Source of the DNA: Candidatus Omnitrophota bacterium
Lineage (GTDB): Bacteria; Omnitrophota; Gorgyraeia; Zapsychrales; JANLHA01
Length of the DNA stretch: 32,000 nucleotides
Reading direction: 5' to 3'
Assembly (NCBI GenBank): GCA_963662715.1
Contig: OY759724.1
Location: 2,370,001 to 2,402,000, forward strand
The notes under the pieces are model-generated. The model saw only the letters and a program-made list of their open reading frames with translations, had not been told where the DNA came from and searched no databases. Made by a program: the position numbers and the translations under genes. Shown here piece by piece: positions 1-31,977 of this stretch; positions within the stretch are counted from its first letter, which is position 1; each line of letters opens with the position of its first letter.

Positions 1-996
<996 letters not shown>

Positions 997-1216
997 TATT
1001 TTTTTTAGAAAGATATTCCGTAGTGTACACGGAAAAGAGTAGAGTGAAAAGTAGTTCCAGAGAACAAACTTCTCTTCGGAACGGCTTGGCTTAAAATATT
1101 ATTCAAGGGTAAGTGGTAAGTGTTAATCGGTAAGTTAGTGGTAAGATTAGAAAATTCCATTTTCTGCTTAGCATTAGCACTTACCACCAGGACTCTTGCC
1201 GCTGACCCATAGTTAG

Positions 1217-1293
1217 GGGCCCGTAGCTCAGTTGGTTAGAGCACCGTGCTGATAACGCGGGGGTCAGTGGTTCGACTCCACTCGGGCCCACCA
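1217..1293 (+). tRNA. tRNA-Ile (anticodon GAU), CCA encoded
   Basis: Acceptor stem GGGCCCG/CGGGCCC, D-arm GCTCAGTTGGTTAGAGC, anticodon loop CTGATAA, T-arm GGTTCGACTCC, discriminator A plus CCA. Lies in the 16S-23S spacer. Confidence 0.95.
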
Positions 1294-1305
1294 TATTAAA
1301 TATGG

Positions 1306-1381
1306 GGGGCTGTAGCTCAGCTGGGAGAGCACATGCTTTGCAAGCATGGGGTCAGGAGTTCGATCCTCCTCAGCTCCACCA
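1306..1381 (+). tRNA. tRNA-Ala (anticodon UGC), CCA encoded
   Basis: Acceptor stem GGGGCTG/CAGCTCC with the G3:U70 alanine identity pair. Anticodon loop TTTGCAA, T-arm AGTTCGATCCT, then ACCA. Confidence 0.95.
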
Positions 1382-1695
1382 AATGACATCTTTTTTATAA
1401 AGATTAATTTGGTTGGGGTGCCAGATTCCTTAAATGTTATTGGGAAAGACTGGCCTCCAGCAATGAATAGCATCTTGAGATGAGCATTAAATCGTAGTAT
1501 AATAGATGTAGTTGTTATGATGGCAAGTTCGAATTTAGGAAGACAATAAGATCAGGATAGATTTAGTAATCTTTAAGTGCAAGAGCAAAGGTTATTCTTC
1601 CAAGTTTAGCCTTTTCTTTTTCGCTGAAGATATTGTTCTTTGACAGTTATGTAATATAGGGTAAATGCAATTAGCCAAATTAATGTCATAGTTTT

Positions 1696-4649
<2,954 letters not shown>

Positions 4650-4714
4650 TTTTTTGATATTAATTTGAATTATTGCTTTATTCTATATTACATAACTGCC
4701 TTATAATTTAGATT

Positions 4715-4831
4715 TCCGGCAACTTTGCTGGAGGGGCCACACCCGTTCCCATTCCGAACACGGTCGTTAAGCCCTCTAAGGTCGATGGTACTTTAGTCGC
4801 AAGGCTATGGGAGAGTAGAACGTTGCCGGGT
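4715..4831 (+). rRNA. rrf: 5S ribosomal RNA
   Basis: Terminal helix tccggcaac/gttgccggg. Conserved cccgttcccattccgaacacgg and gggagagtag motifs. ~117 nt. Confidence 0.9.
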
Positions 4832-21659: not shown

Positions 21660-21861
21660 CCCTCCCGAAATAATCCGCGTCACTTATCCCGCAAAAAGAT
21701 GCAGCTGTGATAAGGAAGAGGCTTCTGCGCTTATTTTTTCCCGCGGAGCTGATTTTTTTTGTGTTTTTCTGACCCGAATATGTTTTTTTTACCCTGCATT
21801 TTAAAAACCACTTCTTTTATCTCAATTGTTGAAAATTTTGTTATAATAATTACGAATTATC

Positions 21862-21891
21862 TTGACGGTAAATAGACATCACTACTATAAT
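21862..21891 (+). promoter_or_regulatory. Candidate sigma70-type promoter for the FabZ-like/KAS operon
   Basis: TTGACG (21862-21867), 18-nt spacer, TATAAT (21886-21891), in an AT-rich 260-nt gap after fabD. 27 nt upstream of the ATG at 21919. Confidence 0.4.
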
Positions 21892-21918: not shown

Positions 21919-22371
21919 ATGTCGCAAAAAATTAATAATTATCAGTTGCATAAAATCCTTCCGCACACTTATCCTTTTCTTTTAATAGACTATGTAGAAA
22001 AATTTACGAAAGGGAAAAACCTCACAGCCATTAAAAATATTACGGTCAACGAATGGCCGTTTACAGGCCGGGTCAATTTCTCTAACCGCTACCCGGAAAT
22101 ACTGCTGATAGAAGCGTCCGCTCAGGCCGCATTGGTTTTGTATTATTTGACTTTTGAAGATGACCCGAACCGCCCGTTGCCGATTATCGGCCGGGTCGCG
22201 GCGGAGTTTGCCGGGGATGTCTCTGCGGGGGATCAGGTCAGAATCGAAGTGACCGGCGGGAAGTATATGCGAAAAGGAGGGTATTCGTTTATTGATATCT
22301 TTCACGATCAGCAGGTTTTGGCGCGGATTAAAATTATTTACGGAGTCTTACCCAGGAAAAGAACGTTATGA
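21919..22371 (+). CDS. FabZ/FabA-like hotdog-fold protein with catalytic His replaced by Arg
   Basis: LPHTYPFLLIDYV...AIKNITVNEWPFTGRVNF...ILLIEASAQA aligns position-for-position with E. coli FabZ LPHRFPFLLVDRV...NEPFFQGHFPG...LILEAMAQA. The His of GHFP is Arg51 (cgg, 22069-22071). The Glu is retained. Confidence 0.8.
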   Translation: MSQKINNYQLHKILPHTYPFLLIDYVEKFTKGKNLTAIKNITVNEWPFTGRVNFSNRYPEILLIEASAQAALVLYYLTFEDDPNRPLPIIGRVAAEFAGDVSAGDQVRIEVTGGKYMRKGGYSFIDIFHDQQVLARIKIIYGVLPRKRTL

Positions 22372-22490
22372 TAAAAGCCGTCCAATCCCCTAAAAGACGC
22401 GTTGTGGTGACCGGGCTGGGCGTTGTGTCCTCTATCGGCATAGGCTGGCAGGAATTCTGGAAGAATATTATTGCCGAAGAATTTACCTGA
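22368..22490 (+). pseudogene. 40-codon N-terminal remnant of a beta-ketoacyl-ACP synthase (not in ORF track)
   Basis: My translation is MIKAVQSPKRRVVVTGLGVVSSIGIGWQEFWKNIIAEEFT*. ATGA overlap with the FabZ-like stop. Residues 12-31 are identical to residues 8-27 of the intact KAS at 23717. It then diverges and stops. Confidence 0.8.
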
Positions 22491-22568
22491 ATTTGTTGTA
22501 GATTTAGAGTAAAAAATTTTTTGTAACCTTGGGTGACTTATAAAAGAACTCAAAAGAGAGGGGTAAAG

Positions 22569-23720
22569 ATGTTCAATGATGTAGAATCAAAGATTAAAGC
22601 TATTTATAATAAAAAGTATTATGAGGTTTTTCATCTAGGGAAGGTTTTTACCGTGGAACTTGTGCGGAAGATATTAATCGAATCTTTAATTGTAGAAAAA
22701 TTATCTCAAAAAGAAAGTACATTGCAACAAATTAAAGATGAATTAATATTTGCTGATAATTCAATCCCCGCATTAAGATGGCTGATGGAGTTTGCCTGTG
22801 AAGAAGAATTAATTAATAAAGAATTTTTCAATGAAGAATGGAGATATTCTTTAAAAGGAGAATTTTTAAAAAGAGACCTACAGTTACTTGCTAATAATAT
22901 TTTAGATCTTGATCCTGGTTGGAAGACATTTATTCAGTTGATGCGGATAGTTGCTGATGATTATCCATTATTTTTTAAAGGAAAAAAGACTGGAATAGAA
23001 ATTTTATTTGCAAAAGACCGCGCTCATTATTGGGATGCTTATTTTGGAAACGTTTATAGTGCGTATACTGCTTATAATGAGTTTGGGGCTTTATTAGCTT
23101 CAGAAGTTATTGCTTTGAAAGAACATCCTTTAATTTTAGAAATAGGCGCGGGAACGGGAGGTGCGACTGAAAAGTTGCTAGATTTATTGAAAAAAAGAGA
23201 CCTTTTGTCGAGAATGAGTCAATATATTTACTCTGATATTTCTCCTCTTTTTTTGAGAACTGGAAATAAAGTTTTGATGAGATATCTTGGCCCTGATATG
23301 GATTATGATTTATTTAAAGTAGATTTTAACAAATCTTTCACAAATCAAAAAATTAAAGAAGAAAGTGTTGATGTTGTGTATGGTGTAAATGCCTTGCATG
23401 TATCGAAGAATTTATTGCAAACATTGAATTCTATAAAAGAGATATTAAAACCAGAAGGATATTTAGTTGTTTGTGAGGTTATTCGATCTCAAAAAAACAA
23501 ACCGTTATTTTTAGAACTCATTTTTAACATATTAGATTCATATACACAAGTTGATATTGATCCCGATTACAGATTTTCTCATGGCTTTTTAACCTTTGAA
23601 GAATGGAAACGTGCTTTAGAAATAGCAGGTTATGCTAAGGTTGAAATTTATGATAATGTTTGTGGCAATTCCCAGGAAAAACAGGAAATAATAGCCGGTG
23701 TTATTGTGGGACAAAAATGA
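22569..23720 (+). CDS. Class I SAM-dependent methyltransferase (Methyltransf_12 / PKS C-methyltransferase-like) with ~180-aa N-terminal helical extension
   Basis: Motif I ILEIGAGTGGATEKLL, post-I YSDISP, VVYGVNALHVSKNLLQTLNSIKEILKPEGYLVVCE. Start set at the ATG at 22569, preceded by gagagggg. The track start 22533 is a GTG. Confidence 0.8.
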   Translation: MFNDVESKIKAIYNKKYYEVFHLGKVFTVELVRKILIESLIVEKLSQKESTLQQIKDELIFADNSIPALRWLMEFACEEELINKEFFNEEWRYSLKGEFLKRDLQLLANNILDLDPGWKTFIQLMRIVADDYPLFFKGKKTGIEILFAKDRAHYWDAYFGNVYSAYTAYNEFGALLASEVIALKEHPLILEIGAGTGGATEKLLDLLKKRDLLSRMSQYIYSDISPLFLRTGNKVLMRYLGPDMDYDLFKVDFNKSFTNQKIKEESVDVVYGVNALHVSKNLLQTLNSIKEILKPEGYLVVCEVIRSQKNKPLFLELIFNILDSYTQVDIDPDYRFSHGFLTFEEWKRALEIAGYAKVEIYDNVCGNSQEKQEIIAGVIVGQK

Positions 23721-24925
23721 TTATGAAAGAAAAAAAAGTTGTTGTTACAGGGCTAGGAGTTGTTTCCTCTATTGGTATAGGTTGGCAGGAATTTTGGGGG
23801 AATCTTTTAGCTGGGAAATCAGGGATTAGCAGGGTATCTTCTTTTGATACTTCAGAATATGATCGTCATAATGCTGGAGAAGTAAAGATTTTTAAATCAA
23901 GAAAATTTATTGCTGAAAAGAAATCTAAAAGATTGGGCAGATCTTCCCAAATGGCTATAGCTGCGAGTTTGCTTGCTCTAGAAGATGCGAAAATAGTCGT
24001 TAACGATCAAATATCTAAGAAAGGAATTGTCTGTGTCGGCACGACAACAGGAGAAATCGGGATTTTTATTAAATATCATGATAATAAATTTAGAGGTGAA
24101 GTAAAATTTGACTCTAATCTAATATCTGTTTTTCCTGCGAACTCAGTTGCCTCAAATATTGCTATTCAAAATGATTTTCGAAGTCAAAATATTACTTTTG
24201 GCACAGCATGTGCCTCGGGTAATTATGCAATATCTTACGCATTTGATTTAATTAAATCTGGACAGGCTGATTATGCTTTGGTCGGTGGTAGTGATGTCTT
24301 TTCAAGAATGGTCTTTGCGGGATTTTGTAAATTATTTGCAGTTGCCCCCCAGATGTGCCAACCTTTTGATAAGAATAGGAAAGGTATGATCCCAGCAGAG
24401 GGAGCTGGGTGCCTTTTTTTAGAATCTCTTATGTCTGCGAAGGAACGAAATGTAGATATATATGCAGAGATTTTGGGATACGGATTGTCTTGTGATGCTT
24501 TTCATATGACTAAGCCTTCACCAGAGGGAATCTTTAAGGCAATTAAAAAAGCAATCGTGAATTCTGATATTTCACCATCTGATATTGATTATGTTTCTGC
24601 ACATGGCACGGGTACTAGAGAAAATGATATTGCCGAGTGTGCGGCAGTAAAGAAAATATTGAAGAACAATGTTCCTATGAGTTCAATAAAATCAATGTTA
24701 GGCCATACTTTGGGAGCTGCTTCTGCTATTGAAGCTATCTCTTGTTGTTTATCCGTTTCTACGGATCAGATTCCCCCAACTATAAATTATGAAACTCCCG
24801 ACCCGTTATGTGATGTTGACTGTGTGCCGAATGTTAGTAGAAATAAAAAAGTACGAGTGGTATTGAATAATTCGTTAGCTTTTGGGGGAAATAATTGTTG
24901 CGTGATTTTTAAAAAAATTGATTAG
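23717..24925 (+). CDS. Beta-ketoacyl-ACP synthase, elongating (FabF/FabB-like, Cys-His-His) of a non-housekeeping subfamily
   Basis: KKVVVTGLGVVSSIG, active-site Cys in GTACASGNYA, His in VSAHGTGT and SMLGHTLGAAS, C-terminal AFGGNNCCVIFKK. ATGA overlap with the methyltransferase stop. The track start 23660 lies inside the upstream gene. Confidence 0.88.
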   Translation: MIMKEKKVVVTGLGVVSSIGIGWQEFWGNLLAGKSGISRVSSFDTSEYDRHNAGEVKIFKSRKFIAEKKSKRLGRSSQMAIAASLLALEDAKIVVNDQISKKGIVCVGTTTGEIGIFIKYHDNKFRGEVKFDSNLISVFPANSVASNIAIQNDFRSQNITFGTACASGNYAISYAFDLIKSGQADYALVGGSDVFSRMVFAGFCKLFAVAPQMCQPFDKNRKGMIPAEGAGCLFLESLMSAKERNVDIYAEILGYGLSCDAFHMTKPSPEGIFKAIKKAIVNSDISPSDIDYVSAHGTGTRENDIAECAAVKKILKNNVPMSSIKSMLGHTLGAASAIEAISCCLSVSTDQIPPTINYETPDPLCDVDCVPNVSRNKKVRVVLNNSLAFGGNNCCVIFKKID

Positions 24926-24945: not shown

Positions 24946-26046
24946 ATGAAAAAAGCCGCAATGTTGTTTCATCCCCCGAATTTGACAATTGTTGATGAAA
25001 CCGTTGTCAAGGTTATGCCTTTTTTAAAGAATTTATACTCTCGTATTTCAGAAATTAAGAAAAAAAATTTTTTTAGAAGATGTCCACCCTTTAAATTTTT
25101 TAATGTTGATAATTTTGAGTCAGTAACTGGGAAAAAGATTGGATTACTTGGGGTTATGCTTCCGTGGTTCCCAGAACAATTAGTGTCTGGAGATCGTCAA
25201 GTAGTTCAAAAAGAAATTCTTAAAGCAATTTCTTTGGCAAAAAAGAATAAAGCAGAAATTATTACTTTGGGGGCTTTTACATCTATAGTAACGAATCAAG
25301 GGAAAGATTTGGTTGGGAAAACACCCATTGCAATAACTAGCGGAAATACTTATACGGCAGCTTTGTGTATCCGTTCTATTTTTGAAATATGTCAAAAATT
25401 AGAGGTTGATTTAAATAAGGTCAGCTTATGTATTGTTGGGGCAACTGGAGATATTGGTAGTATGTGTGCGAAAGTCCTTTCAAAATATGTTAAGAAATTA
25501 ATTTTATGTTCAAGAAGTATTTCAAACACAAGTGAAATTGTTGTTGAGATTGAGAGAAATATGAACAAAAGGCCAATCATTATGAATCAGCAAGATGAGG
25601 CAGTTAGAGAAGGCGACATTATTATTAGCGCAACTAGTTCGTGGGGGTTGTTATTTAATCATTTAGATTTAAAGCCTGGGACGATATTATGTGATATCTC
25701 TATGCCGCCGAATGTCGCTAGAAATATTCGAAAGGAACGAAAGGATATTTTAGCTTATTCAGGGGGAAGAGCACAGTTTTTAAATTTTATGCATATCAAG
25801 AATCCTATTTGGAAGGCAATGTTTCCTACTAATAATATATATGGTTGTATGGTAGAATCACTAATTTTGGCATTAGAAGATAGATTTGAGAATTTTTCTT
25901 TGGGAAGAGCCACTTCTGATGAGAAAAAAATAGACGAGATATATGACTTGGGGATAAAACATGGTTTTTCTCTAGCAAAATTTAATAATTTTAATTATAT
26001 TTATTCAATAGAAGATTTTAATTATATCAAATCAATTTTACATTAA
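24946..26046 (+). CDS. Acyl-ACP reductase (cyanobacterial AAR)-like NAD(P)-dependent reductase
   Basis: LGAFTSIV, ITSGNTYTAALC, VGATGDIGSMCAKVL (Rossmann), IYGCMVESLILALE (Cys301 at 25846-25848), NFSLGR...IDEIYDLGIKHGF. These parallel AAR blocks LGGFTSII, TTGNTHTAYV, VGATGDIGSAV, FACFAEAMLLEFE, NFSWGR...ASVRHGF, which I recalled from memory. Confidence 0.7.
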   Translation: MKKAAMLFHPPNLTIVDETVVKVMPFLKNLYSRISEIKKKNFFRRCPPFKFFNVDNFESVTGKKIGLLGVMLPWFPEQLVSGDRQVVQKEILKAISLAKKNKAEIITLGAFTSIVTNQGKDLVGKTPIAITSGNTYTAALCIRSIFEICQKLEVDLNKVSLCIVGATGDIGSMCAKVLSKYVKKLILCSRSISNTSEIVVEIERNMNKRPIIMNQQDEAVREGDIIISATSSWGLLFNHLDLKPGTILCDISMPPNVARNIRKERKDILAYSGGRAQFLNFMHIKNPIWKAMFPTNNIYGCMVESLILALEDRFENFSLGRATSDEKKIDEIYDLGIKHGFSLAKFNNFNYIYSIEDFNYIKSILH

Positions 26047-26051
26047 TAATT

Positions 26052-28247
26052 ATGATAGGTAATTTAGAGAATATATTATCAATAGCCACTTTTGTGACAT
26101 TTTTGTTGTTTTTAGTGTTAGCCATTTTCCTTGTTACAAAAAATATAAGATCCTCCACCAATATTTCTTTTTCTCTCGTTTGTGTAAGTGCCTCAATTTG
26201 GTCTTTAAACTATTCAATAGCATACAGATCTGTCGATACTGATGTAGCTTTATTTTGGTTTAAGATAGGATATGTTGGAGTTATGTTTATTGCTATTACT
26301 TATTTTCATTTTGCGATAGTCTTTCTAAGACTAAAGAACATGTTCAAATATGTAAGCTTAAACTATATAGCAGGAATTTTCTTAACAGGGCTACTTTTAA
26401 ATTCTAATATGCTTATTAGTGGCCTTAATGTATTTTCTTGGGGAAGATATCCGAAGGCCGGAAGTTTGCACCCGATCTTTTTGTTGTATTTTTTTGCATT
26501 AGTAAATATCGCAACGATTCAATTAGCAGTAGCTTTTATCAAAAAAAGGAAGACAATTCCTTTAACGCAGGTTCAGCAGCTAAAATATATATTGTTCGCT
26601 TTTAGTATTTATACAATAAATTCTATAGATTTCATTCCTAATTATGGAATTAGTATCCTCCCTGTCGGGTTCATCCCGGCAACGATTTTTATGAGTATAA
26701 TCGTTTATAGTATTGTTAAATTCCGCCTGATGGATATCTCCGTCGCCATCACTCGTACAAGTATTTTCGTCGCAGTTTATTCTCTTGTCCTTGGTATTCC
26801 TTTTGCTCTTGCCTTTGGGTGGCGTGCCCGTCTGCAGAATATTCTGGGGGAGGGGTGGTGGTTGGCGCCTTTAGTTAGTTCTACGGTTTTAGCCACAGCC
26901 GGGCCGTTTATTTATCTTTACATCCAGAAAAGAGCGGAAAACCGCCTGTTCCAGGAGCAGAAAAGGTATCAATCCACCTTGAGGCAGGCTTCGGCCGGTA
27001 TGGGCCGGATAAAAGATTTAAACCGTTTGGTGAACTTGATCGTCCACATCGTCAGCAGGACTGTCCGCTTGGAACATGCTTTGGTGTATTTGCAGGACCC
27101 GCAGACGCGGACATATGTTTTAAAGGCTCATCGAAGCCGGGCTGTAAGGTTCAAAACCCAGGATGTTATCGAGAGTAATTCAGAAATTGTCAAAGTGTTA
27201 AACCGGGAGCGGGAGCCTGTCGTCTATGAGGAGATTAAACAGCAGACCCAGGATTACGGGGATTTGAAGCTGGCCCGTTTGGAAACGGAATTAGCCGCTA
27301 TTAATGCTGCTTTGGTGGTGCCTTGTTATATTGATGAAAAATTGCTGGCGATGATTATCCTCGGCAGAAAGATGTCGAATGATTTATATTCTGAAAGCGA
27401 CCTTGCTGTTTTCTCCATCCTGGCTAATCAGGCGGCCTTGGCCATGGAAAATGCGATGTTTTATGAAGAAATGAAAAACACCCATGCCCAGCTTATGAAA
27501 GCGGAAAAAATGGCAACGATCGGGACCATGGCGGACGGGCTTTCCCATCAGATTAATAACCGCCTTCACGCCTTGGGCTTTATTGCCGGAGATGCTCTGG
27601 ATACGATAAAGTACAAAAAAGACGTGCTTATGAAAGACCCGGAAGTGAAGGAAATTATGGTTGACCTGGAGCATGCTTTGAATAGAATAGAGGATAATGT
27701 GACGCAGGGCGGAGAAATTGTCCGGGGCTTGTTGAAATATACCCGTAAGGGAGAGGAAGGCTTTTCCGATCTGGAGTTTGACCAGCTGATCAATGCTTCT
27801 GTGGAGATGACCCAATTTAAGATCAAGCCGGGAGAGCTGCAGATCTTAAGAGAGTACGGCGCGGACATTCCGAAAATAAAGGGGAATTTTACCCAGCTTC
27901 AGGAAGTGTTCTTTAACCTCATTGATAATGCTTATGATGCGATGATGCAGAGGAAAGCCGAGCTTAAAGAAAAAGAATATAGCCCGACGATTAAGATTTT
28001 CGCTCAGGGGGATAATAACGGCGGGATAAATATCCGCTTTGAAGACAACGGGATCGGTATTAAGGACGAAGATAAGATGAAGCTTTTTACCCCGTTCTTT
28101 ACGACGAAATTATCGAGTAAGAAAGGCACGGGGCTGGGCCTTTATGTCATTCAGAAGCTGATCGAAGAAAATCATGAAGGGAAAGTCGCCTACAGTTCCG
28201 TGTATCAGCAGGGGACGAATGTATCGATTTATCTTCATTCTGTTTAA
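26052..28247 (+). CDS. Sensor histidine kinase: N-terminal 7TM sensor region, GAF, HisKA, HATPase_c
   Basis: 731 aa with ~7-8 hydrophobic helices in the first ~290 aa. GAF-like segment LVNLIVHIVSRTVRLEHALVYL...AALVVPC. H-box MADGLSHQINNRLHAL, N-box FNLIDNAYDAM, G-boxes EDNGIGI and GTGLGLYV. Starts 5 nt after the AAR-like stop. Confidence 0.88.
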   Translation: MIGNLENILSIATFVTFLLFLVLAIFLVTKNIRSSTNISFSLVCVSASIWSLNYSIAYRSVDTDVALFWFKIGYVGVMFIAITYFHFAIVFLRLKNMFKYVSLNYIAGIFLTGLLLNSNMLISGLNVFSWGRYPKAGSLHPIFLLYFFALVNIATIQLAVAFIKKRKTIPLTQVQQLKYILFAFSIYTINSIDFIPNYGISILPVGFIPATIFMSIIVYSIVKFRLMDISVAITRTSIFVAVYSLVLGIPFALAFGWRARLQNILGEGWWLAPLVSSTVLATAGPFIYLYIQKRAENRLFQEQKRYQSTLRQASAGMGRIKDLNRLVNLIVHIVSRTVRLEHALVYLQDPQTRTYVLKAHRSRAVRFKTQDVIESNSEIVKVLNREREPVVYEEIKQQTQDYGDLKLARLETELAAINAALVVPCYIDEKLLAMIILGRKMSNDLYSESDLAVFSILANQAALAMENAMFYEEMKNTHAQLMKAEKMATIGTMADGLSHQINNRLHALGFIAGDALDTIKYKKDVLMKDPEVKEIMVDLEHALNRIEDNVTQGGEIVRGLLKYTRKGEEGFSDLEFDQLINASVEMTQFKIKPGELQILREYGADIPKIKGNFTQLQEVFFNLIDNAYDAMMQRKAELKEKEYSPTIKIFAQGDNNGGINIRFEDNGIGIKDEDKMKLFTPFFTTKLSSKKGTGLGLYVIQKLIEENHEGKVAYSSVYQQGTNVSIYLHSV

Positions 28248-31263: not shown

Positions 31264-31572
31264 ATGTGTCCTGATAGTAATGGTTTAATCCAAACGTCAA
31301 ATACAATATCAGACCTTCAACAATGGGGTACTCATCAAACGACTCAAAAATCACTAGCTTTAGGTGGAGATTACATTGAATCCTTTCAAGTTCGTGTCAA
31401 TAAACAAGGATTAATTGACGCAATTCAACTTTATGAACAAACTTTTTCTGGGCAAATGGATTATAATGCATTAAATCATAATAGTAATTTTGCTGTAAAC
31501 AGTATAATATATGTAGCGGGTGGTGATATCCCTGCGGGCGGTCGGGCTCCCGGATTTCCATCTAATCCATAA
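31264..31572 (+). CDS. Hypothetical protein (orphan, AT-rich segment), possibly the 3' part of a frameshifted gene
   Basis: 102-aa ORF. An overlapping 47-codon ORF that I translated at 31148-31288 lies in another frame. Weak NC/PPPDE-like motif YNALNHNSNFAV with Ser where those families have Cys. Confidence 0.35.
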   Translation: MCPDSNGLIQTSNTISDLQQWGTHQTTQKSLALGGDYIESFQVRVNKQGLIDAIQLYEQTFSGQMDYNALNHNSNFAVNSIIYVAGGDIPAGGRAPGFPSNP

Positions 31573-31587
31573 TTAAGGAATATAAAA

Positions 31588-31977
31588 ATGATAAAGAAAA
31601 TATATGTGATTTTAAGTTTTCTGGTTCTCGCTATGTTTTTATATCCAATGAGAGGAGTTCCGATGGCGATAAACCCTGATAAATCCAACGAAATCATAAA
31701 AAAGTATAACCGAATCAATTTTTCTGATGGTATTAATAAAGATGAGGCAATTATTATTGCCCAACATAGTATTGTTACTGATGAGGAAAATAATTGGAAG
31801 GATAATTTGAAAGTAGCCAGCGCAGAAGTTGACAATAGTGGTCTTGATGAAGGTTGGTGGGCAGTAGGATTTGATGCCACATTAAGTTTTAAATCAAGAA
31901 CAGGGTTAAGATGGTTTACTATTCACATTGATAAAAAGACAGGAGAGATAAAAAGTAAGGGCTGGGGGCCTGCATAA
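31588..31977 (+). CDS. Hypothetical exported small protein
   Basis: 129 aa with N-terminal hydrophobic signal or anchor IYVILSFLVLAMFLY. C-terminal WFTIHIDKKTGEIK resembles the PepSY-type beta-hairpin motif. aaggaa RBS-like sequence upstream. Confidence 0.5.
   Translation: MIKKIYVILSFLVLAMFLYPMRGVPMAINPDKSNEIIKKYNRINFSDGINKDEAIIIAQHSIVTDEENNWKDNLKVASAEVDNSGLDEGWWAVGFDATLSFKSRTGLRWFTIHIDKKTGEIKSKGWGPA

Follow-up and report, generated by a model that had tools for sequence, protein, structure and literature searches.

Why should an open reading frame (ORF) of 40 codons, overlapping the stop codon of a FabZ-like gene, encode the same 20 residues as a complete β-ketoacyl-acyl carrier protein (ACP) synthase (KAS) gene located 1.3 kb further downstream? 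This question is raised by a 32,000-nt stretch of the genome of a Candidatus Omnitrophota bacterium (GenBank assembly GCA_963662715.1, contig OY759724.1, positions 2,370,001 to 2,402,000, forward strand), referred to below as the window. The short ORF, hereafter the stub, is probably a pseudogene, a scar left when cassettes were exchanged at a lipid-tailoring locus of variable content. According to this reading, to which we give good credence as a whole, the stub would be the 5′ end of the lineage's own vertically inherited, GC-normal KAS gene, translationally coupled to the FabZ-like gene.

The truncated KAS gene and its junction

The stub (22368-22490, plus strand) is translated as MIKAVQSPKRRVVVTGLGVVSSIGIGWQEFWKNIIAEEFT followed by a stop; it consists of 36 KAS codons, four codons for EEFT and the stop codon. 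Its ATG overlaps the TGA stop of the upstream gene, which encodes a FabZ-like protein of 150 aa, in the tetranucleotide ATGA. Positions 22401-22460 of the stub and 23738-23797 of the intact KAS gene both translate to VVVTGLGVVSSIGIGWQEFW, 20 identical residues, with 10 nucleotide differences between the two segments. All 10 fall at third codon positions, and in 10 of 10 cases the base is G or C in the stub and A or T in the intact gene (binomial p = 0.002). Every number given in the original prediction for these synonymous G/C-to-A/T differences was reproduced. A repeat finder reports the pair as a 74-nt direct repeat with 80% identity, the copies being 1337 nt apart. The 40-aa product matches the NCBIfam FabF model TIGR03150 (E 8.8e-7), while its score against Pfam PF00109 (E 0.0012, 18.9 bits) is slightly under the cut-off of 20.8. 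Judged by these comparisons, the resemblance between the stub and the intact gene is beyond chance.

The KAS match had been thought to stop at Trp31; in fact it continues to codon 36. Residues 32-36 of the stub (KNIIA) correspond to KNLIA or KNLLA in the KAS genes of relatives, and in a DNA alignment with four of these the homology runs through ...ATT GCC G (22476), after which the window reads AAGAATTTACCTGA. The junction thus lies at 22476|22477, after KAS codon 36. GC content is 0.51 for 22368-22476 versus 0.29 for the 92-nt spacer that follows (22477-22568). This spacer contributes the final four codons and the stop of the stub, as well as the Shine-Dalgarno sequence of the next gene, which encodes a methyltransferase (MT); it has no similarity to any relative's locus compared. 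No terminator, flanking repeats or Rfam element was found at the junction.

A tblastn search of the window with four full-length KAS proteins of the family revealed no KAS fragment besides the stub and the intact gene, and a check for remnants of the 3′ part of the resident KAS, of an FAD-oxidoreductase, of the other MT type and of a second KAS (KAS2) likewise came out empty. The frame NLPEFVVDLE that opens right after the junction was considered as a KAS or FabZ C-terminus and dropped, its match to KAS C-termini (only VV..E) being at chance level. With only 36 KAS codons left, the stub lacks the complete two-domain thiolase fold and the Cys-His-His triad; since no further fragment is present, it is a gene fragment and not an enzyme. 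In annotation the 40-codon ORF should therefore carry the label KAS fragment rather than hypothetical protein.

Which gene the fragment comes from is indicated by its leader peptide and its position. Over codons 1-36 the stub has 89% amino acid and 79% nucleotide identity to the KAS start of JGI contig L001. The stub leader MIKAVQSPKRR and the L001 leader MIKANQSKKRR share 9 of 11 residues (MIKAxQSxKRR), and the leader of the intact KAS in the window is MIMKEKK. L001 contains fabD, then a FabZ-like gene, then a KAS gene with an ATGA overlap identical to that in the window. Its fabD is 80% identical to that of the window (last 167 residues) and its FabZ-like protein, at 69%, is the closest FabZ-like homologue; the KAS frame stays open as a normal KAS to the contig end. 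By housekeeping genes the nearest relative is L048, found in a second metagenome scan, with identities of 80% (plsX), 84% (fabH), 73% (fabD), 76% (coaD) and 76% (rsmD). Here fabD and the FabZ-like gene are followed by a full KAS gene of 410 aa (GC3, the GC content of third codon positions, 0.51), and then by an AT-rich gene for an FAD oxidoreductase (GC3 0.245). The contigs of these relatives are short (L001 has 1.5 kb, and L048 ends 1.2 kb past its KAS). An alignment scan of a genome collection with the FabZ-like protein retrieved mostly housekeeping FabZ of other phyla, L011 being the sole useful locus.

A full-length KAS gene directly follows the FabZ-like gene in L001, L002, L011, L048, L003, L128 and L129. 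The N-terminal motif VVTGLG[VA][VI]SS[IVL]G[IL]GW[QE][ED]FWKN[LI][ILV]A is present in L001, L002, L003, L008, L048, L128 and L129 as well as in the stub, which also has a start codon overlapping the FabZ-like stop, in keeping with the definition used here for the family (overlap, or at most 12 nt past that stop). The suggestion that the stub represents a resident, GC-normal KAS coupled to the FabZ-like gene is thus borne out by L001, L048, L011 and L002, in which the same sequence begins a full-length KAS at this place.

The 20 shared residues are less informative than they look. Over core codons 12-36 the DNA of the stub is 79% identical to the intact copy, 81% to L001, 81% to L048 and 79% to L008, and between the stub and the family third positions differ in about half of these codons, near saturation. 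Equal identities to all of these genes, together with near-saturated third positions, indicate that the 20-residue match reflects family-wide purifying selection. As far as the alignments go, the match is no sign of recent or specific kinship between the stub and the intact KAS, and it is the leader peptide and the position that identify the stub. The claim that synonymous-only divergence ties the two copies to each other does not hold, since the core is as similar to L001, L048 and L008 as it is to the intact copy. The same figures bear on a local duplication, by which the 5′ end of the present KAS would have been copied in tandem to give the stub. The 20 identical residues, the direct orientation and the distance of 1337 nt would suit such an event; the chance of it is nevertheless next to nil, as the leaders differ and that of the stub matches L001, KAS genes from other genomes are at least as similar to it in the core as the intact copy is, and codon usage is opposite in the two copies.

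Differences between the stub and L001 are distributed over the three codon positions as 4, 2 and 17 (chi-square p = 1.7e-4), so most of the divergence arose under purifying selection and the truncation should be recent relative to the split from L001. The mostly synonymous substitutions could also be taken to mean that the ORF is a retained functional small gene, either a coupling or leader peptide that carries ribosomes towards the genes downstream or an independently acting peptide of 40 aa, and the open frame and the preserved ATGA overlap and upstream AGGA agree with this. However, changes that preceded the truncation, and those on the branch leading to L001, would be expected to show such a bias; moreover, no free-standing small ORF homologous to the stub was seen in any relative compared, a strong Shine-Dalgarno sequence of its own precedes the MT gene, 78 nt downstream, and the fragment has no catalytic residues at all. 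We give a retained function a very slight probability.

The intact KAS and the low-GC tract

The intact KAS has another history than its neighbours. In the active-site Cys, His and His motifs TACASGNYA, SAHGTGT and MLGHTLGAAS it aligns to identical motifs in PDB 9s5h_B; by these residues the intact gene is predicted to encode a functional elongating KAS. Its identity is 54% to the KAS of L048, 61% to L003, 60% to L128 and 59% to L008. In a neighbor-joining tree of 65 KAS sequences with 100 bootstraps it grouped with the L048 KAS in 0 of 100 replicates, L048 grouping with L002 in the tree. Given 54% identity to the nearest relative by housekeeping genes (fabH 84%) and the fact that the two never group, the intact KAS is not a vertical ortholog; in this tree it is incongruent with the flanking genes, and it should not be taken as a vertical ortholog in phylogenomic or metabolic reconstructions. 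With 400 bits against the NCBIfam FabF equivalog, whose cut-off is 494, it is also not to be filed as a housekeeping FabF. Among solved structures its best relative by far is PDB 9s5h_B (457 bits), followed by Iga11 (320 bits) and ordinary FabF proteins (at most 288 bits). The named members of this KAS family are Omnitrophota.

Composition changes along with ancestry. GC3 is 0.22 for the MT, 0.25 for the KAS and 0.25 for the gene of an acyl-ACP reductase (AAR)-like protein that follows, compared with 0.38-0.62 in the other window genes checked, a range that leaves out two unannotated ORFs at 31264-31977. These two adjacent ORFs (102 and 129 aa, GC3 0.18 and 0.29, without Pfam match) may be another AT-rich accessory tract at the window edge. 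The G/C-to-A/T direction of the differences between the stub and the intact copy is the local side of this region-wide step in GC3, down from 0.45-0.62 in genes of the flanks. Low GC3 (0.24-0.36) persists for ∼600 nt into the next gene, which encodes a histidine kinase (HK) with 7TM and GAF domains, and then rises to 0.5-0.7. Membrane-protein coding was rejected as the cause of low GC3 at the kinase 5′ end, since GC3 is 0.55-0.58 for the AcrB and EamA genes, which also lie in the window. In L048 (8444-10837) GC3 steps from 0.51 to 0.245 exactly at the ATGA overlap of the KAS gene and the gene for the FAD-dependent (phytoene-desaturase-like) oxidoreductase; in that genome the variable AT-rich tract begins just past the KAS, not within it.

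In the original prediction the body of the resident gene had been replaced by a homologous locus from a lower-GC relative. A homologous locus as the source is plausible, as other Omnitrophota-like contigs have the pair MT-KAS (with ATGA) or the order KAS-AAR-HK at the corresponding site. The lower GC of the donor, on the other hand, is unproven: the corresponding cassette genes of L003, L006, L008, L128 and L129, together with the start of the kinase gene, also lie 15-30 GC3 points under their own flanks, so that low GC3 is a property of the cassette pool and no pointer to a donor genome.

The course of events that we favor, turnover of a cassette, can be outlined as follows. In the ancestral state a KAS gene would have stood directly behind the FabZ-like gene, which lacks the catalytic His, and would have been translationally coupled to it. 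AT-rich lipid-tailoring cassettes appear to turn over in this clade in the slot between fabD/FabZ-like on the left and the 7TM-GAF kinase on the right. A cassette beginning at 22477 and bringing a C-methyltransferase of the polyketide synthase (PKS) type, its own KAS and the AAR-like enzyme would have come in, the body of the resident KAS being lost; this cassette probably also includes the 7TM portion of the kinase. The condensing function would now be supplied by the incoming, xenologous KAS, and the stub, devoid of catalytic residues, would still be transcribed from a conserved putative promoter and probably translated by way of the ATGA overlap. Two routes to this state can be envisaged, and the data leave them side by side, the spacer matching nothing and no donor having been found. 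The first is a single step, in which homologous sequences would have crossed over at the kinase end while KAS codon 37 was joined illegitimately, and which would fit homology-facilitated illegitimate recombination (PMC3240628). By the second, the cassette would have been inserted behind the resident KAS, at the position taken by accessory genes in L048, L003, L128 and L129, and the redundant KAS body would have been deleted afterwards.

A comparable process is known from the effector/immunity modules of Vibrio cholerae's type VI secretion system (T6SS), where sequential in-situ displacement leaves relics (PMC5361080). In both cases an incoming module of homologous function displaces the resident one at a conserved slot and an old piece is left at the junction. 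A recombination with just one homologous side, the opposite end being joined illegitimately, would be consistent with what is seen here. Unlike the V. cholerae relics, which are whole immunity genes kept by selection, the piece described here is a 36-codon fragment without evident function, and the mechanism proposed for it is a putative one.

The joint could conceivably have been made by the assembler, from two co-occurring populations with different cassettes joined at ∼22477. Related populations with alternative cassettes do exist in nature, and the change of composition at the junction is abrupt. Both flanks, however, are in the expected syntenic order, and the joint links KAS codon 37 to non-coding DNA with no repeat shared between the two sides, the sole repeat (74 nt, 80%) lying 1.3 kb off. 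The size of the source contig (3.36 Mb according to the protein database) and the presence of an rRNA operon in the window also suggest a long-read or finished assembly. We therefore consider a chimera very unlikely.

The junction itself is symmetric and silent on which side is older. The events could thus have gone in reverse, the AT-rich MT-KAS-AAR-HK tract being resident and its left end overwritten by a GC-normal fabD/FabZ-like segment with 36 KAS codons from an L001-like relative; low-GC cassettes are indeed the commoner state among the sampled loci. To this reversal we attach little probability. L001 and L048, both nearest relatives, have the GC-normal FabZ-like-KAS arrangement, and parsimony puts that state in the common ancestor. 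Identity to L001 is 69% for the FabZ-like protein versus 80% for fabD, the same ratio as for L048 (51% versus 73%), with no excess similarity that would hint at a recent import, and conservation of the promoter region extends to L001 and L048.

Several observations weigh against turnover of a cassette as we have outlined it. No donor closer than 61% (KAS), 43% (MT) or 47% (AAR) was found in the collections searched, and the transfer is deduced from incongruence and composition. By these two features, atypical composition with a sharp boundary and a cargo phylogeny incongruent with the flanks, the tract resembles a genomic island; it contains only the MT, the KAS, the AAR-like gene and the kinase 5′ end, and no mobility genes, no flanking repeats beyond chance and no tRNA or att site were found at it. 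The GC3 step in the kinase gene is present in all relatives and is not specific to this event, so the right-hand junction cannot be placed. The nearest relatives, with their short contigs, show only part of what once lay downstream of the resident KAS.

Events of this kind are well known, but this instance of one is new, and so is the locus. Taken alone, the stub is an ordinary pseudogene fragment, and its value is that of a dated footprint. In a fab-linked lipid operon of an uncultured phylum, a condensing enzyme would have been exchanged in place for a distant homologue that brought new tailoring genes with it.

Layouts of the slot in related genomes

The stub pointed to a locus with fixed flanks, between which almost every relative sampled has a different set of genes. 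Within the same syntenic frame, from fab genes to the 7TM kinase, the response regulator and the HD-GYP protein, at least six layouts are present. The FabZ-like and KAS genes are followed by an FAD oxidoreductase in L048 and L002 (whose contigs end before any kinase), by an MT of an unrelated type (360 aa) and the HK in L003-L005, by an SDR/NAD_binding_4 reductase and the HK in L128, and by an AAR-like gene and the HK in L129. The AAR-like protein of L129 is 46% identical to that of the window, and in this locus BacA and an OmpR-type regulator are located upstream instead of fabD. In L006-L009 the order is FabZ-like, MT (383-387 aa, 43% identical to that of the window), KAS, KAS2 and HK, with the MT/KAS ATGA overlap as in the window, whose own layout is FabZ-like, stub, MT, KAS, AAR and HK. 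The order of kinase, response regulator and HD-GYP protein is syntenic in L003, L006, L008, L128 and L129. A comparison with syntenic loci lacking the methyltransferase had been proposed. The relatives do carry MTs there, at a different position or of a different type, and a full-length KAS does follow the FabZ-like gene.

The 7TM domain of the kinase is 17-53% identical between loci versus 48-85% for the rest of the protein (the cytoplasmic part), and the 7TM domain of the window most resembles that of L129, where alone among the other loci an AAR-like gene is present. Cassettes seen so far include an FAD oxidoreductase, two kinds of MT, a second KAS, an SDR reductase and an AAR-like reductase. 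We raise, tentatively and with more doubt than confidence, the possibility that the slot separating the FabZ-like gene from the kinase is a recombination hot spot at which Omnitrophota exchange AT-rich lipid-tailoring cassettes together with the 7TM sensor of the kinase, the sensor being tuned to each chemistry, and that the stub is the first direct footprint of such exchange. If so, the arrangement in the window would be intermediate, with 'KAS-first' layouts to one side of it and 'MT-first' layouts to the other.

KAS2 of the MT-first loci (L008 10797-12071; L006 10426-11733) is ∼30% identical to the first KAS of the same loci. An inactive, chain-length-factor-like partner was ruled out for KAS2 of L008, in which the Cys/His/His motifs are intact; the analogy with the anammox heterodimer is therefore not directly transferable. 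Small PF05635 genes (23S rRNA intervening-sequence protein (IVP)/bAvd-like four-helix bundle) are situated at differing sites in the syntenic regions of relatives (L003 12660-13061 and 15197-15592; L004 4217-4453; L006 15349-15735 and 17175-17621; L128 6478-6873); the window showed none. These genes have the look of small elements that were inserted independently.

Gene products, known systems and neighbouring features

The coordinates of the locus are collected in Table 1. Genes between 21919 and 26052 overlap or sit 5-78 nt apart. A scan of the stretch from the stub to the MT gene found no terminator, and operon continuity is intact.

Table 1. Features of the FabZ-like/KAS locus, in window coordinates
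Feature	Position	Strand	Evidence and remarks
Extended −10-like motif TGTTATAAT, upstream of the FabZ-like gene	21839..21847	+	Invariant in the window, L001 and L048; putative promoter role
Promoter-like site TTGACG-18-TATAAT, 11/12 matches	21862..21891	+	Best in consensus scan; window-specific; putative function
FabZ-like hotdog protein, 150 aa, resident	21919..22371	+	Pfam FabA E 3.4e-12; 69% to L001
KAS-homologous part of the stub, codons 1-36 and one base	22368..22476	+	L001 KAS start, 89% aa, 79% nt; GC 0.51
40-codon ORF as now read	22368..22490	+	ORF list and translation
AT-rich spacer, start of the low-GC tract	22477..22568	+	Homology loss in DNA alignment; composition (GC 0.29)
S-adenosylmethionine (SAM)-dependent methyltransferase, 383 aa, PKS C-methyltransferase-like, GC3 0.22	22569..23720	+	Pfam Methyltransf_12
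Intact KAS, 402 aa, probably xenologous, GC3 0.25, ATGA overlap with the MT gene	23717..24925	+	Pfam PF00109 and PF02801
AAR-like/PigE N-domain-like oxidoreductase, 366 aa, GC3 0.25	24946..26046	+	NCBIfam PigE, AcACP_reductase; PDB 4ppm, 6jzq
Low-GC 5′ part of the HK gene, 7TM sensor domain	26052..26650	+	GC3 0.24-0.36, then 0.5-0.7; right boundary approximate
7TM-GAF histidine kinase, 731 aa, conserved right-hand anchor	26052..28247	+	Pfam HisKA_7TM, GAF, HATPase_c

The FabZ-like protein scores 79.7 bits against NCBIfam FabZ (cut-off 113). In comparison with the solved FabZ structures 4h4g and 6n3p its catalytic His is replaced by Arg (GH to GR) and the Glu is kept, so that the G-H-F-P His and Glu pair of a FabZ 3-hydroxyacyl-ACP dehydratase is incomplete. 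In the relatives (L001 761-1213; L002 23-487; L048 8001-8450; L129 1825-2277) the position of the catalytic His is taken by Gln, Lys, Ala or Gly. The family, with its hotdog core and Glu kept, is probably not a canonical dehydratase. Upstream of the gene, TGTTATAAT is found ∼75 nt 5′ of the start codon, within an AT-rich spacer that is otherwise poorly conserved.

The MT belongs to a tiny family, with 11 homologues among 5.8 billion proteins; the best, in L006 and L008, are 43% identical and are placed between the FabZ-like gene and the KAS. In the PDB it best matches the C-methyltransferase domains of PKSs, both modular and iterative (DisA, AprA, CurJ, PksCT and LovB), with DisA 6cca, CurJ 5thy and PksCT 5mpt among them. 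Iga11 (PDB 6kxd), the second-best structural relative of the intact KAS, is the ketosynthase of a highly reducing type II PKS. Unlike these, the window proteins are free-standing and lie in a fab-gene context, and this genome has no chain-length-factor partner for them.

The AAR-like protein of 366 aa aligns over its full length with cyanobacterial AAR (PDB 6jzq) and with the PigE N-terminal domain (PDB 4ppm). Its matches to NCBIfam PigE (E 1.8e-48) and AcACP_reductase (E 3.7e-33) are both under cut-off. Unlike AAR, it scores 115 bits against a cut-off of 450 and has no aldehyde-deformylating oxygenase or aminotransferase partner nearby. Its nearest relatives are 44-47% identical, one of them being that of L129 (order FabZ-like, KAS, AAR, HK); a metagenome scan with this protein returned no matches.

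The likenesses of the KAS and the MT suggest that a β-ketoacyl-ACP made by the KAS is methylated at the α carbon, and the AAR-like enzyme would likely release the acyl chain reductively as an aldehyde. A reasonable guess at the operon product is a reductively released, methyl-branched acyl chain. A C-methyltransferase, a KAS and an AAR-like enzyme behind a FabZ-like protein without its His thus predict a methyl-branched fatty aldehyde or alcohol.

In anammox bacteria, the 'Cluster I' fatty-acid genes include amxACP, amxFabZ and amxFabF2/amxFabFmut (bioRxiv 10.64898/2026.05.19.726425; PMC10139942), and antiSMASH 'ladderane-like' clusters were reported in Omnitrophota (PMC9902471). PDB 9s5h_B probably corresponds to amxFabF2 of anammox bacteria, although bioRxiv 10.64898/2026.05.19.726425 does not print the accession. 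As in Cluster I, an unusual FabZ adjoins a specialized FabF-like KAS beside core fab genes. By the test for membership in Cluster I the similarity of the KAS is all that is shared: the FabZ-like protein of the window has no catalytic His, none of the five cassette-region proteins has an ACP, radical-SAM or inactive-FabF domain, and the gaps between the genes leave no room for others. No ladderane chemistry is implied. The 'ladderane-like' antiSMASH calls in Omnitrophota may stem from this KAS family or from loci of this kind.

Along the window the order is an rRNA operon, several unrelated genes, RecG, rsmD, coaD, yceD, rpmF, plsX, fabH, fabD and the AT-rich promoter region; these are followed by the FabZ-like gene, the stub, the MT, the KAS, the AAR-like gene, the 7TM-GAF histidine kinase, the response regulator and the HD-GYP protein. 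The rRNA operon (1-4831) is composed of a partial 16S gene, two spacer tRNAs, 23S and 5S; it shares the strand of the locus and is situated ∼17 kb upstream.

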